From NCBI RefSeq assembly GCF_024223415.1, contig NZ_CP100502.1: a DNA stretch of 64,000 nucleotides; one strand, given 5' to 3'. Both the position numbers and the translations under genes were made by a program. The notes under the pieces are model-generated. The model saw nothing but the letters and a program-made list of their open reading frames with translations. It made no database searches and was not told where the DNA came from. Below are positions 14,061 through 17,009 of the stretch, piece after piece (position 1 is the stretch's first letter; each line of letters starts with the position of its first letter). The DNA is from Escherichia coli (lineage in GTDB: Bacteria > Pseudomonadota > Gammaproteobacteria > Enterobacterales > Enterobacteriaceae).

Positions 14061-14212
14061 GACAAAGTCTCCATTTCTGGAATTTAAATCAAACGGAAAG
14101 GTTAAAAATTTATTTGCAGGCGATAAGAGCTAACCAGAGGAATTAGCCGTGCGATAAAAGGATTGTTGCAGATACGAAAGTCGTTAGAATAGCTGCGGGC
14201 GCTTGAGGCTGT

Positions 14213-14497
14213 ATGCCGAAAGCGTTTTGTGGACGGTATACAGCAGAAAGCCCCTGGAGATTTTTTTATCAATCAACCAAGGGCTCTACTGTAATGCCTA
14301 GACAACATTATAGTAGCCCGATAACCGCCGTAAGGCAATGGAGGGGCTATGATGCCACAGCGAACGTTTTTAATGATGTTAATCGTCATCTGTGTGACGA
14401 TTCTGTGTTTTGTCTGGATGGTGAGGGATTCGCTTTGCGGACTCCGGCTCCAGCAGGGAAACACAGTGCTTGTGGCAACGTTAGCCTACGAAGTTAA
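14213..14497 (+). CDS. pndC: PndC-like overlapping reading frame (mok-type translational coupler for pndA); true start uncertain
   Basis: ORF overlapping pndA in another frame and ending 7 nt before the pndA stop, as in hok/mok architecture. Confidence 0.35.
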   Translation: MPKAFCGRYTAESPWRFFYQSTKGSTVMPRQHYSSPITAVRQWRGYDATANVFNDVNRHLCDDSVFCLDGEGFALRTPAPAGKHSACGNVSLRS

Positions 14498-14504
14498 ACG
14501 TTAA
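14352..14504 (+). CDS. pndA: PndA, Hok-family type I toxin, 50 aa
   Basis: Not in ORF track (<60 aa). Translation MPQRTFLMMLIVICVTILCFVWMVRDSLCGLRLQQGNTVLVATLAYEVKR; SD ggagggg; Hok signature (SLC..R, LAYE). Confidence 0.85.
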   Translation: MPQRTFLMMLIVICVTILCFVWMVRDSLCGLRLQQGNTVLVATLAYEVKR

Positions 14505-14513
14505 CGGGCAACA

Positions 14514-14544
14514 CGGCGGCAGGTTTTCTGCCGCCGCTTTGTTG
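14514..14544 (+). terminator. Terminator after pndA
   Basis: Stem cggcggcag / ctgccgccg followed by a T-rich tract. Confidence 0.6.
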
Positions 14545-14575: not shown

Positions 14576-14827
14576 TCAATGAAGCGTATCCGGTATTGTT
14601 TCATTTTCCCTGAAGCCGATTAGCTCCAGCCGAATGCCTTTGCCATCGGGGGCCACGTTCTGCATTTCGCAGATACCACGTCGGGTCATGAGTGTGAAGG
14701 CTGTCATTGCCAGCATGGCTAACGCGTTTTCCTCGCTTCCGCTGCGTTTCTCGAGAGCATCGGCAATTTCTTCTATGCTCCCCACCTGAAAGCAAGAGTC
14801 GAATTCTTTACTCCACTTTTCTGACAT
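14576..14827 (-). CDS. Hypothetical protein, 83 aa
   Basis: ORF track only; weak SD. Confidence 0.35.
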   Translation of the reverse strand: MSEKWSKEFDSCFQVGSIEEIADALEKRSGSEENALAMLAMTAFTLMTRRGICEMQNVAPDGKGIRLELIGFRENETIPDTLH

Positions 14828-14980
14828 CGGATTTTCTCTCTGTATTTATGGGTAGTTATCGAACTGAATGTGCCAGTTTTTTCAGGAGACGGCAAAGTTG
14901 AGATGATTGGTTCTGATTCAGAGCATGAGTTTCCTCGGTGTGACGGGCATGTCGGGCGGATTTTGAGAAACAACAGATGT

Positions 14981-15011
14981 AAAAAAACCGACTGGTGAGG
15001 TCGGTTTTTTT
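14981..15011. terminator. Bidirectional rho-independent terminator
   Basis: aaaaaaa-ccgac-tggtgag-gtcgg-ttttttt. Confidence 0.65.
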
Positions 15012-15043
15012 ACTGTTCCGTTACAGAGTGGGTGGCCCTGACC

Positions 15044-15068
15044 GGAGGAAATCTCTTTTCAACTAACG
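15044..15068 (+). repeat. 25-nt direct repeat copy 1 (ggaggaaatctcttttcaactaacg)
   Basis: Near-identical copy at 15231-15255; first 10 nt complementary to gatttcctcc at 15300-15309. Confidence 0.8.
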
Positions 15069-15230
15069 TTCTTATAATAGCGAGCTGTTCATTTGATAGC
15101 AACCATCCTTATAATCCGCAGGTTAGCTCTGTCTGGCGACACTTCTGCCGTGATATCCATCGGGACTATGGATGCAAGATTTTAAGTCCTGGCTGAACAA
15201 ACAGGTGGTGCTGTGTTCAGTGCTCTGGCA

Positions 15231-15255
15231 GGAGGAAGTCTCTTTTCAACTAACA
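15231..15255 (+). repeat. 25-nt direct repeat copy 2 (ggaggaagtctcttttcaactaaca)
   Basis: See copy 1; lies ~70 nt upstream of the DinQ-like mini-ORF. Confidence 0.8.
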
Positions 15256-15325
15256 CTGAAAGTGCCGTTGTGACAGGCAATGTAAGAGTAAGCAACGGTG
15301 ATTTCCTCCAGTGATGGAGAAGCGG

Positions 15326-15421
15326 ATGATTAATCTGTTAATCATCGTTCTCAGGGCAGTAGTTGCCGTTGCAAACGCGCTGATTGCTGTTCTGGAACTG
15401 ATCCGGGAACTTGTCGACTGA
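15326..15421 (+). CDS. DinQ/TisB-class small hydrophobic peptide (candidate type I toxin), 31 aa (35 aa from ATG 15314)
   Basis: Not in ORF track. MINLLIIVLRAVVAVANALIAVLELIRELVD; resembles E. coli DinQ (..ALIALLELIRFLL.. as I recall); SD ggag; hairpin follows at 15443-15469. Confidence 0.5.
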   Translation: MINLLIIVLRAVVAVANALIAVLELIRELVD

Positions 15422-15442
15422 TAAGCCTGGAAACGTAACTAA

Positions 15443-15469
15443 GGGCAGGGAGTTACCGCTTCCTGCCCT
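15443..15469. terminator. Hairpin agggcagg-N11-cctgccct after the mini-ORF
   Basis: 8-bp stem; weak T tract. Confidence 0.4.
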
Positions 15470-15485
15470 TTAACAAAAAGAGATC

Positions 15486-15662
15486 TCACGTTAAAAATTT
15501 GTACCCTTCTTTAACTTCCAGTGCCTGCTCCTTTGACTCAAACATCAGTCTTGTTTTCCCGGGAACGCCCCATGAAATGTATTCAACATCTATCCACCAT
15601 TTTCCATATTCTTTATATGGCCCGGATATTACTTTTTTGACAAAGGCGTCTACCAGATTCAT
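15486..15662 (-). CDS. Hypothetical small protein, 58 aa (MNLVDAFVKKVISGPYKEYGKWWIDVEY...)
   Basis: Internal ATG of ORF 15486..15770 with SD aagga; AT-rich region. Confidence 0.4.
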   Translation of the reverse strand: MNLVDAFVKKVISGPYKEYGKWWIDVEYISWGVPGKTRLMFESKEQALEVKEGYKFLT

Positions 15663-16053
15663 TATTTTTTCCTTTTTGTGTTGAAAATAATTAATGCCAG
15701 AGCACAGCGAAAATAATGAATGCGCTGGCTGTGATAATTGCGATTTTCTCCCATATGATATTTTTCTCATGGGGGTTTCTACGGAGATTATTTCTTCGCA
15801 TTGAGATACCGGTATTCATGTTTTATCTTGGACTTTTGTTTTGTTGTCTGTCTGGCAGGCTGTTCTGCGCCCGTTTGTGACAAGGTTAGCTTATGGGGTT
15901 AAATGGTCACGGACATCATGCGGACGGTTCCCTGTCACATGCCATCTGTTTTTTTCATTCAAATTGAGAGATATTGCTAAGTTGAGTCGCTTGCGATAGT
16001 GGACTCCTGTTTGTAAGTGAGTGCCATTGTTTATTTCATGAAGAGGATTGATT

Positions 16054-16263
16054 ATGAGCATGCCTCCTGCGATAGCTAATACTTTCTTGTTTGAAATGAT
16101 GAAGAGTAAATCAAAAGACGTTACACTTGCTGCGATCTATGCATTAGGTGAAGGCCGGTGTCAGGCGGAGAACATTACTCGTGAATTACATAGATTGAGT
16201 CAAAGTGATGATATGGAAATAAAAATTGCTGCGATTAAAGCACTTGGTCGAATTTATCGGTAA
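16054..16263 (+). CDS. Hypothetical small protein, 69 aa, with HEAT-like repeats (AAIYALGEG / AAIKALGRI)
   Basis: ORF track (16048 is TTG; ATG at 16054); followed by hairpin at 16294-16315. Confidence 0.4.
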   Translation: MSMPPAIANTFLFEMMKSKSKDVTLAAIYALGEGRCQAENITRELHRLSQSDDMEIKIAAIKALGRIYR

Positions 16264-16293: not shown

Positions 16294-16315
16294 AGCCGGC
16301 TCATTTGAACCGGCT
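16294..16315. terminator. Hairpin agccgg-N10-ccggct between the 16054 gene and excA
   Basis: Stem-loop; T-rich tract on the minus strand (downstream of excA). Confidence 0.45.
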
Positions 16316-16334: not shown

Positions 16335-17009
16335 TTAAAATACTTCGGCTACAGGCATGCCTGCAATCTGCTCCCACTCCTTACGCTTCTCCTGAATTAG
16401 GCGAGGAAAGTCGACAGGGTAATCATATCCTCTTTCTGCCATTGCATGCATTGTATCCGCCATCATTTTGGGATGGATGCATCCTGACGGAATTGAGACC
16501 ATTGGTATATTTATGTATTTTGTATAAATCTCTAGTGTCTTGGCGTCGGTCACAGTGCGTGTGAAGTTGTCAATGTCAAAGCCGATAATATCCATTATAT
16601 TTCCAGGGTAAGCACGAGCATACAGCATAGTGCCTTTTTTGGTATCCACGCCAAAATAGACGCCCTGAGTAAAAGACAGTCCCTCATATTCTTTGTCAGG
16701 TGAATAAAAACCGGTGTTTTTTATCTCCGCGACAATTTTTTTTATTTTGTCTTTTCTTGAGCTTGCTCGGGAATACATCAATATTGCAGGGGCAATTAGT
16801 AAAAACAGACAGACGCAAGTATAAATATAATCTTCTTGCGTCACATATCTTGAAGATGTAATGGAGAGCAATCCGAAAAGAATAAAAATGGATAACACTG
16901 GTATGCTTATGAAATATATAAATCTAAGGGCGTAATATAATGTCCACCAAGCAGGATATCTATTGATTGTTTTTACCATTTGCATAATAAACCCTCCATA
17001 AACACTCAT
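16335..17009 (-). CDS. excA: ExcA entry-exclusion inner-membrane protein, 224 aa
   Basis: Membrane protein immediately downstream of the traY-like gene; AT-rich; position matches R64 exc. Confidence 0.6.

Follow-up and report, generated by a model that had tools for sequence, protein, structure and literature searches.

Gene content of the segment

The segment examined here (positions 14,576–16,263) lies in a 64,000-nucleotide stretch of DNA from Escherichia coli (contig NZ_CP100502.1), which we refer to as the window. It holds genes for proteins of 83, 58 and 69 amino acids (aa), a small toxin gene with its antisense RNA and a short membrane-peptide gene, here called sTM (Table 1).

Table 1. 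Features in and beside the segment, by position in the window
Feature	Position	Strand	Evidence or remark
pnd locus, hok/sok-type type I toxin–antitoxin	14197–14504	+	Rfam RF01794 at 14197–14354, 134 bits (gathering 59)
pndA, Hok/Gef toxin gene	14352–14504	+	RefSeq: Hok/Gef family protein
GC-rich hairpin, pnd terminator	14514–14536	+	Terminator scan; −26.8 kcal/mol; between pndA and the convergent 83-aa gene
83-aa protein gene	14576–14827	−	RefSeq WP_001291964
agrB-like antisense sRNA, dqlB antitoxin	14979–15066	−	Rfam RF02891, 55.3 bits (threshold 40)
LexA-box-like site	15189–15204	+	Upstream of dqlB; pattern match
agrB target in the dqlB 5′ UTR	15222–15254	+	33-nt direct repeat of 15035–15067, 88% identity
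dqlB, small hydrophobic toxin	15326–15421	+	NCBIfam NF041473, 67 bits (threshold 35); RefSeq
Hairpin between the convergent dqlB and 58-aa genes	15441–15471	.	−22.4 kcal/mol (+ strand), −17.6 kcal/mol (− strand)
58-aa protein gene	15486–15662	−	RefSeq WP_001054904; PHROG 8110
sTM, membrane-peptide gene	15691–15819	−	28 nt upstream of the 58-aa gene; unannotated
69-aa two-repeat HEAT protein gene	16054–16263	+	RefSeq WP_000062603; strand opposite to its neighbours
Hairpin with T-run, excA terminator, also closing the convergent HEAT gene	16294–16315	−	Terminator scan and fold
excA, IncI1 surface exclusion gene, right border of the island	16335–16985	−	RefSeq

The initial annotation had reported the 83-, 58- and 69-aa open reading frames (ORFs); we confirmed all three in the sequence, with coordinates, strands and lengths exact, and for a plasmid of 100% identity RefSeq lists genes with matching coordinates. 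Its inventory was otherwise incomplete, having overlooked the agrB-like antitoxin sRNA and the peptide gene at 15691–15819. The hairpins that it described as separating the ORFs are present, at 14514–14536, 14979–15013, about 15441–15471 and 16294–16315. Its description of the segment as an AT-rich island fits one part better than another. The GC content of the segment is 43.8%, against 49.7% for the whole window (8th percentile), but the low values (39–42%) are confined to the right half, from where they continue into excA, whereas the 83-aa gene has a GC content of 50.4%. An Rfam match to mir-3012 near excA fell far below threshold and was disregarded.

Conservation of the small reading frames

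Small ORFs are abundant in this DNA, with 70 of at least 25 aa within 5 kb, and length alone is no evidence for a gene. The three ORFs could be chance frames in the regulatory, sRNA-rich DNA of two toxin–antitoxin loci instead of protein genes; sRNA and UTR elements are indeed present, and a promoter scan found no convincing sigma-70 promoter for the 83-aa gene, the unit formed by the peptide and 58-aa genes, or the HEAT gene. Against this, the 58-aa gene has a dN/dS of 0.05, the HEAT gene one of 0.12–0.17 and the 83-aa gene one of 0.15–0.20, and in all three ORFs the differences cluster at third codon positions (P = 3 × 10−5 to 2 × 10−3). Protein homologues of equal length, with identities down to 38–46%, occur in phages and other elements, the 69-aa product matches a Pfam HEAT family and the 58-aa product has been seen by mass spectrometry. 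Chance frames are exceedingly unlikely in the light of these observations, and on the strength of their conservation we accept the three ORFs as genuine conserved protein genes. The initial annotation had named loss of the reading frames in related plasmids as the observation that would speak against it; the frames are conserved and purifying selection acts on each of them (dN/dS 0.05–0.2), so that objection falls. Purifying selection and a third-position bias were also found for the membrane-peptide gene. Searching the literature for the protein accessions, or for transcriptome data on IncI1 plasmids, returned nothing.

A DinQ-like toxin–antitoxin locus

Judged by its sequence, the centre of the island is a type I toxin–antitoxin locus of the DinQ-like kind, with both a toxin gene and a complementary sRNA. 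In our scan, the agrB-like sRNA has a promoter-like site at 15102–15074 and a terminator at 15013–14979. The 33-nt direct repeat makes the agrB RNA complementary to the dqlB 5′ UTR, and the duplex between the two is predicted at −62 kcal/mol. The LexA-box-like site upstream of dqlB, CTGGCTGAACAAACAG, has also been predicted in the plasmid pTF2, with a heterology index of 11.6 (PMC12211044). In its DqlB toxin, AgrB-like sRNA, complementary repeat and LexA-like box, the locus corresponds to E. coli dinQ/agrB and to the dqlB/agrB locus on pOXA-48. Killing, its rescue by the sRNA and the antisense mechanism have been shown experimentally for the pOXA-48 locus (PMC12365149), whereas the copy described here, which neighbours the three ORFs, is known from its sequence.

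The membrane peptide and the 58-aa protein

The sTM gene encodes 42 aa from its first ATG, with a conserved core of 36 aa from the ATG at 15801, and its product is predicted to consist of a basic N terminus and a single hydrophobic transmembrane helix that ends the protein. Its frame and stop position are kept in IncK2/Z plasmids and in metagenome contigs, and it is intact in 1335 plasmid records, mostly without being annotated there. It had no match to a known family in Pfam, NCBIfam, PHROG or PADLOC, and a scan of species-representative genomes returned nothing. The 58-aa gene comes next after sTM in 56 of the 60 IncI1- and IncK2/Z-type metagenome loci. sTM is also found ahead of genes for an 85-aa protein related to the 83-aa one, a secreted protein rich in proline and a membrane protein of 299 aa. 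In pESBL, sTM is altered, the variant being Hp28.

The 58-aa protein matches PHROG 8110 over its full length (E = 9 × 10−20; residues 1–57 on profile positions 1–58 of 59), and homologues of the same length occur in Aeromonas, Pseudomonas, Bacteroides and crAss-like phages. Phage members of the family have 58–63 aa, among which P15, Y16, G32, M40 and F56 are invariant and W23 and Y28 nearly so; their genes sit within strings of small accessory genes. A scan of viral contigs with the 58-aa protein returned one plasmid-like contig only. The model, predicted with confidence, is a small β-barrel of putatively OB-like fold, rich in aromatic residues (9 of 58, several of them conserved), and the conserved aromatics suggest that the protein may bind single-stranded nucleic acid.

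The gene corresponds to protein 140 of pTF2; mass spectrometry has detected this protein, whose level rises about two-fold under cefotaxime and in a hyper-SOS lexA strain (PMC12211044). Deletion of protein 140 lowered traF and traM mRNA and left transfer frequency unaffected (PMC12211044). In transposon sequencing (TnSeq) of pESBL, its homologue Hp27 scored 0.57 as non-essential, 0.42 as essential and 0.01 as needed for transfer (PMC4288162), which leaves its need for plasmid maintenance ambiguous. In the same data Hp28 was called 'essential' for maintenance with a score of 0.76, and hha was also called 'essential for maintenance' (PMC4288162).

The peptide, as a membrane toxin, and the 58-aa barrel, as its neutraliser, could form a further toxin–antitoxin pair, which if real would explain why pESBL shows residual post-segregational killing and an 'essential' call in TnSeq. 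Even without pnd, that plasmid still kills plasmid-free cells (PMC7602700), and the peptide resembles small hydrophobic toxins, is closely linked to the 58-aa gene and, with it, travels alongside dqlB. The extra killing, however, is already covered by dqlB/agrB, a proven addiction module in pOXA-48. Nor are the two partners always together: the peptide also lies upstream of three other genes, and beside the 58-aa family no such peptide was found in the eight phage loci examined, where the immediate upstream genes varied and were mostly larger (43–237 aa). Whereas the plasmid copy of PHROG 8110 lies 3′ of a small membrane-peptide gene, the copies at these phage loci usually overlap the stop of their varied upstream gene. 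In addition, pTF2 was viable after deletion of the 58-aa gene. The peptide is like small membrane proteins and type I toxins in its size, basic N terminus and lone hydrophobic helix, but differs from the toxins in having no identified antisense RNA and a varying downstream partner. Taking both sides into account, we regard such a pair as improbable.

A second reading of the linkage is that sTM is the conserved first gene of an undescribed, swappable two-gene module of I-complex plasmids, linked to the membrane and acting in exclusion, abortive killing or sensing. Such a module, which we likewise hold to be a long shot, could explain the 'essential' score of Hp28. The second gene of the proposed module could encode the 58-aa barrel, an 83/85-aa protein, or a proline-rich secreted or larger membrane protein.

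The 69-aa HEAT protein

The initial annotation had labelled the 69-aa protein HEAT-like, and it indeed passes the Pfam threshold for HEAT_2 (PF13646; 31.6 bits, gathering 27.7) as well as that for HEAT (PF02985; 24.2 bits, gathering 23.5). An internal DNA repeat, with its copies 99 nt (33 codons) apart, spans AAIYALGE and AAIKALGR, and in a comparison with the PDB the protein aligned repeat by repeat to alphaRep HEAT proteins, which are scaffolds that bind proteins (E = 1.9 × 10−7).

Homologues with 40–78% identity are encoded in lambdoid prophages of Citrobacter, Enterobacter and Yersinia by lone opposite-strand genes in the late region, among lysis and terminase genes. Similarity to the prophage copies runs from about 50–110 nt upstream of the HEAT start codon to the stop codon. 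The bor gene of lambda is a moron transcribed against the late operon, and the plasmid HEAT gene, like such morons of lambdoid prophages, is antisense to its neighbours; its product has no sequence relation to Bor of lambda. Among the neighbours of the HEAT homologues and of the 83-aa homologues, we found no informative Pfam or PADLOC matches.

Wherever it is present, in IncI1 and IncK2/Z plasmids, the HEAT gene adjoins excA. The slot next to excA holds the HEAT version in 1113 PLSDB records and an hha version in 303, and hha takes the place of the HEAT gene in about one-fifth of IncI1 plasmids. Hha/YmoA, a small helical H-NS co-regulator that is likewise 69 aa long, occupies the same excA-side slot in plasmids of the pESBL type, but hha lies on the strand opposite to that of the HEAT gene. 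We considered whether the 69-aa protein is itself an Hha/YmoA protein and rejected this, having found no match to HHA (PF05321) at E values up to 1; the precomputed Pfam annotation of an hha gene, that of locus L008, does list PF05321. As pESBL has no HEAT gene, the pESBL TnSeq results do not extend to it.

The 83-aa acidic protein

The 83-aa protein is acidic (15 D/E against 9 K/R) and is predicted to have three helices followed by a three-stranded sheet (AlphaFold pLDDT 74.5). No structural matches to the model were found. An HU/IHF-like DNA-binding fold was considered for it and rejected, as the combination of structural superposition and a basic DNA-binding surface expected of one was not found. 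Neither the 83-aa protein nor the 58-aa protein, nor any of their relatives, had a family match in Pfam, NCBIfam or PADLOC, and PDB sequence searches with profiles of the two families gave noise only. A sigma-54-like motif seen by eye upstream of the 83-aa gene had an unfit −12 element and was dropped.

The gene is present in 1388 plasmid records. An exhaustive HMMER search with the 83-aa query yielded three true distant relatives, and P0185 and P0188 are distant relatives; P0193 and P0195, which are long and repetitive, were discarded as low-complexity artefacts. IncK2/Z proteins of 80 aa are related to the 83-aa protein (hhalign, 97.7%), and the members of the I-complex family of 80–85 aa, as we define it, have profile-level homology, a common core motif and a C-terminal histidine. 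In our searches the family is confined to I-complex plasmids. Given this spread and its backbone-like GC content, the 83-aa gene seems a long-established resident and not newly acquired cargo. Its pESBL homologue, Hp25, had a probability of 1.00 of being non-essential for maintenance, and the pESBL homologues of both the 83-aa and 58-aa genes had scores of about zero for a requirement in transfer (PMC4288162).

Mosaic structure of the region

R64 and ColIb-P9 have an identical layout with the same gene order; the 83-aa and HEAT proteins do not differ from their R64 counterparts, and that of 58 aa is a close variant of the one in R64. Set against the trbA–traY variable region of R64, ColIb-P9, pESBL and pTF2, the window has the canonical arrangement, with no substantive difference. 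Of 5426 complete E. coli genomes, 1372 carry parts of the region. Modules come and go separately. In pESBL, hha replaces the HEAT gene and finQ is added; IncK2/Z plasmids carry agrB–dqlB, the peptide gene and the 58-aa gene and have neither pnd nor the 83-aa gene; other plasmids carry pnd, an 83-aa relative and the HEAT gene and have neither dqlB nor the 58-aa gene. One divergent element carries a fragment of excA, hha and an 83-aa relative side by side.

The trbA–excA region has been called very variable, with finQ and IS609 insertions (PMC8004404), which bears out the initial annotation in placing the genes in a known accessory slot. Its observation is correct but ordinary. Its view of the genes as separately acquired cargo agrees with the separate histories that module-wise presence and absence reveal, but not with the 83-aa gene, which looks long resident. 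The term 'orphan' was wrong for two of the three genes: the 58-aa protein belongs to PHROG 8110 with homologues in phages, and the HEAT protein has homologues in prophages.

Proposed roles

We think it probable that the segment is the standard IncI1 trbA–excA variable region, a mosaic of small cassettes whose genes encode small binding or modulator proteins. The cassettes would be small, separately transcribed and swapped among I-complex plasmids, two of them also with phages. Two would be type I addiction loci, pnd and agrB/dqlB with its LexA-like box, and interleaved with these would be the three protein genes and the one gene missed by annotation. The membrane peptide and the 58-aa barrel that follows it are likely to form a two-gene unit, and the HEAT gene, beside excA and on the opposite strand, would be placed in the manner of a moron in a prophage, an additional gene complete in itself and set within another operon. 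The ligand of the 58-aa barrel would be nucleic acid or a protein, and the HEAT and 83-aa proteins would each bind other proteins; the three may tune plasmid or host gene expression, or act in competition among mobile elements, and would not be parts of the transfer machine. This binding or modulator role is our best guess, drawn from the genomic context and the class of fold.

One or more of the three proteins might instead be an anti-defence or phage-exclusion factor, which would explain the sharing between phages and plasmids. Two of the families lie at phage accessory or moron positions, and the 83-aa protein is small and acidic, as many inhibitor proteins are. IncI1 plasmids do alter phage type, but these effects map elsewhere, to ibfA and a 1273-aa protein (PMC8004404). 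PADLOC gave no significant match, only weak ones (E = 0.005–0.03). Plasmid anti-defence genes usually cluster in the leading region; the island, which from the general IncI1 layout we take to be on the trb side of oriT, lies outside it. We consider an anti-defence role rather unlikely.

Another possibility is that the genes are accessories of exclusion or transfer, the HEAT protein working alongside ExcA/TraY and the 83-aa protein alongside the regulation of tra genes by Hha/H-NS. The constant position of the HEAT gene next to excA in both plasmid groups, the consecutive excA fragment, hha and 83-aa relative of the divergent element, and the fall in traF and traM mRNA after the 58-aa deletion are all consistent with it. 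However, the 83-aa and 58-aa homologues are dispensable for transfer by TnSeq, the IncI1 plasmids with hha instead of the HEAT gene transfer well (pESBL, for example), and the HEAT family also occurs in prophages that lack excA. We judge this role to be unlikely, and retain binding or modulation as the preferred reading.

Among the major carriers of ESBL and AmpC resistance genes are IncI1 and related plasmids, whose backbone retains several conserved genes annotated without a function. To this the analysis adds that the small ORFs are real genes, that two of the families are exchanged with phages and one marks I-complex plasmids, and that a conserved membrane-peptide gene is absent from most annotations. 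These results are of use for annotation and for the choice of knockout targets, and leave the view of plasmid biology unchanged. For pESBL, the TnSeq calls of Hp28 and hha as 'essential for maintenance' are at odds with simple dispensability.

Small genes in a canonical IncI1 region

All three small ORFs that the initial annotation had placed between the pnd locus and excA were found, in agreement with RefSeq. Because ORFs of such size are frequent by chance (70 of at least 25 aa within 5 kb here), we measured coding constraint against diverged copies. The 58-aa gene, at 78% nucleotide identity to IncK2/Z plasmids, had a dN/dS of 0.05, and the 83-aa gene had values of 0.15-0.20 against four diverged copies. 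Third codon positions held most of the differences (26 of 38, 20 of 31 and 20 of 33; P = 3e-5 to 2e-3). Rather than being lost in related plasmids, the reading frames are thus under constraint, and we have high confidence that the small ORFs are real genes and modular cargo.

Features of the region between trbA/pnd and excA (window positions)
Feature	Position	Strand	Remarks
Hairpin	14514-14536		
83-aa gene	14576-14827	-	
Possible peptide-gene remnant	about 14850-14930	-	between agrB and 83-aa gene
Hairpin	14979-15013		
AgrB-like sRNA	14979-15066	-	Rfam 55 bits, threshold 40
LexA-box-like site	15189-15204		upstream of dqlB; pattern match
Hairpin	about 15441-15471		
58-aa gene	15486-15662	-	94-aa start form would span 15486-15770
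Membrane-peptide ORF	15691-15819	-	36-42 aa; stop 28 nt before 58-aa gene
69-aa HEAT gene	16054-16263	+	
Hairpin	16294-16315		
excA ORF	16335-17009		open for 224 aa; RefSeq start at 16985 (216 aa)

IncI1/I-gamma plasmids such as pLH09-a-B carry the region at 100% identity, and parts of it were matched in 2374 plasmid records and among complete E. coli genomes (1372 of 5426). RefSeq gives the order trbA, a Hok/Gef gene (pndA), the 83-aa hypothetical, dqlB, the 58-aa hypothetical, the HEAT-repeat protein, excA and traY. This layout is shared with the archetypes R64 and ColIb-P9, in which the 83-aa and HEAT proteins are identical, so the window has the canonical IncI1 arrangement. The accessory slot recognised initially is an already known, annotated and variable part of the plasmid, the small genes of which are still uncharacterised; our additions are small, comprising coding evidence, phage and prophage links, a wider 83-aa family, and an overlooked peptide gene and sRNA. 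The units are separated by hairpins, as proposed. The description of an AT-rich island (43.8% GC, versus 49.7% for the window) holds for the right half, where low GC runs on into excA, but not for the 83-aa gene (50.4% GC).

The 83-aa family and the HEAT slot

No family was found for the acidic 83-aa protein in Pfam, NCBIfam or PHROG. We found it in 1388 plasmid records, nearly always at 95% identity or more, whereas searching 1.8 billion proteins exhaustively yielded only three true distant relatives (46-60% identity), one adjoining a dqlB/agrB-like locus and another preceded by a fragment of excA and by hha. The 80-aa hypotheticals of IncK2/Z/B/O plasmids (487 records) also belong to this family (hhalign 97.7%, E = 1.8e-12), all members of which have a core like S-x-E-x-AL-A-ML...LM...GI and a C-terminal His. 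The predicted structure (pLDDT 74.5) combines three helices with a three-stranded sheet; structural searching gave no convincing neighbour for it. Although the small genes had been described as separately acquired cargo, this one looks like a long-standing I-complex gene.

The 69-aa protein, initially called HEAT-like, has two repeats, passes the Pfam HEAT_2 cut-off and aligns with alphaRep HEAT proteins. Its non-plasmid relatives (40-78% identity) lie in lambdoid prophages of Citrobacter, Enterobacter and Yersinia as single opposite-strand genes amid late-region lysis and terminase genes, which is where morons classically sit. Plasmid and prophage copies are similar from about 50-110 nt 5' of the start codon as far as the stop codon. 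On IncI1-type plasmids, HEAT fills the slot in 1113 records; another 303 have hha there, as does pESBL. Short excA 3'-end fragments adjoin the HEAT gene or hha in three compared loci (L017, 2778-2888; L018, 2771-2881; L008, 5394-5579), which suggests that cassettes are exchanged through recombination events at this end of the gene.

A dqlB/agrB locus

For the AgrB-like sRNA, overlooked initially, scanning gave both a promoter-like site and a terminator. The sRNA shares with the dqlB 5' UTR a 33-nt repeat, with a predicted duplex of -62 kcal/mol. A LexA-box-like site upstream of dqlB, also predicted in pTF2 (PMC12211044), would fit SOS control as in chromosomal dinQ. Loci of this type are reported for 67% of IncI1 plasmids, and that of pOXA-48 was shown experimentally to be an addiction module (PMC12365149). 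In an apparently recombinant metagenome contig (L092), the dqlB-agrB part barely differs from the window as far as the agrB terminator, beyond which the sequence switches to a divergent lineage with a peptide gene and an 85-aa gene.

The 58-aa gene and its upstream peptide

The 58-aa protein matches PHROG 8110 (E = 9e-20), with homologues of 58-63 aa (38-54% identity) in Aeromonas, Pseudomonas, Bacteroides and crAss-like phages, where the gene sits within runs of small accessory genes. Some records use a 94-aa start, as in pTF2 (HTE32_RS00140; L034, 10830-11114). The 58-aa start is better supported, because homologues from Aeromonas and Pseudomonas phages have 58 aa, an in-frame stop lies just 5' of this start in the aligned IncK2/Z copy, and the extension would run across the conserved peptide ORF in a different frame; the published pTF2 protein 140 is therefore probably the 58-aa form. 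Protein 140 was seen by mass spectrometry; cefotaxime treatment and a hyper-SOS lexA background each raised it about two-fold, an effect not seen for ciprofloxacin, and deleting its gene lowered traF and traM mRNA but left transfer frequency unchanged (PMC12211044).

The overlooked membrane peptide, counted from its second Met, reads MRRNNLRRNPHEKNIIWEKIAIITASAFIIFAVLWH. IncK2/Z plasmids, with about 57% nucleotide identity over this ORF, and metagenome contigs keep its frame and the stop shortly after the hydrophobic helix. The ORF is intact in 1335 plasmid records, mostly without annotation, and a metagenome pattern scan found 65 true copies in four subtypes. The 58-aa gene follows in 56 of 60 IncI1- and IncK2/Z-type loci; elsewhere, the downstream partner encodes an 85-aa protein related to the 83-aa one, a secreted proline-rich protein or a membrane protein of 299 aa. 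The idea that the peptide and the 58-aa gene form an extra toxin-antitoxin pair is weakened, since each occurs without the other. In pESBL, Hp28 (L002, 3134-3277) is the peptide gene minus 26 nt, a deletion that alters the C terminus and makes the stop overlap the 58-aa gene start.

Published transposon-sequencing probabilities for pESBL genes (PMC4288162)
Gene	Non-essential	Maintenance-essential	Transfer
Hp25 (83-aa gene)	1.00	0.00	0.00
Hp27 (58-aa gene)	0.57	0.42	0.01
Hp28 (peptide, 26-nt deletion)	0.22	0.76	0.02
Hha/YmoA (HEAT-slot occupant)	0.40	0.59	0.02

One possibility is that rarer transposon insertion in this AT-rich stretch lies behind the 'essential' scores of Hp28 and hha. We also considered roles as exclusion or transfer accessories and as anti-defence factors, which are less likely. 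With low confidence, we favour small proteins that would act as accessory binding or modulator proteins, carried by a recombination-prone slot.

In L007, L066 and L092, which represent a divergent plasmid lineage, the peptide gene lies upstream of the 83-aa relative. The matching interval of the window aligns weakly with that gene and needs two deletions, and may thus hold a decayed remnant. The fourth subtype (L055, 730-852; L063, 9414-9536) precedes the 299-aa membrane-anchored protein in a non-plasmid-like context, near acetyltransferase-like and deacetylase-like ORFs judged by eye from translations. An IncK2/Z plasmid (L017, 1434-2461) has two pnd (hok/sok-type) loci in tandem, separated by a truncated, 60-aa protein related to the 83-aa one.
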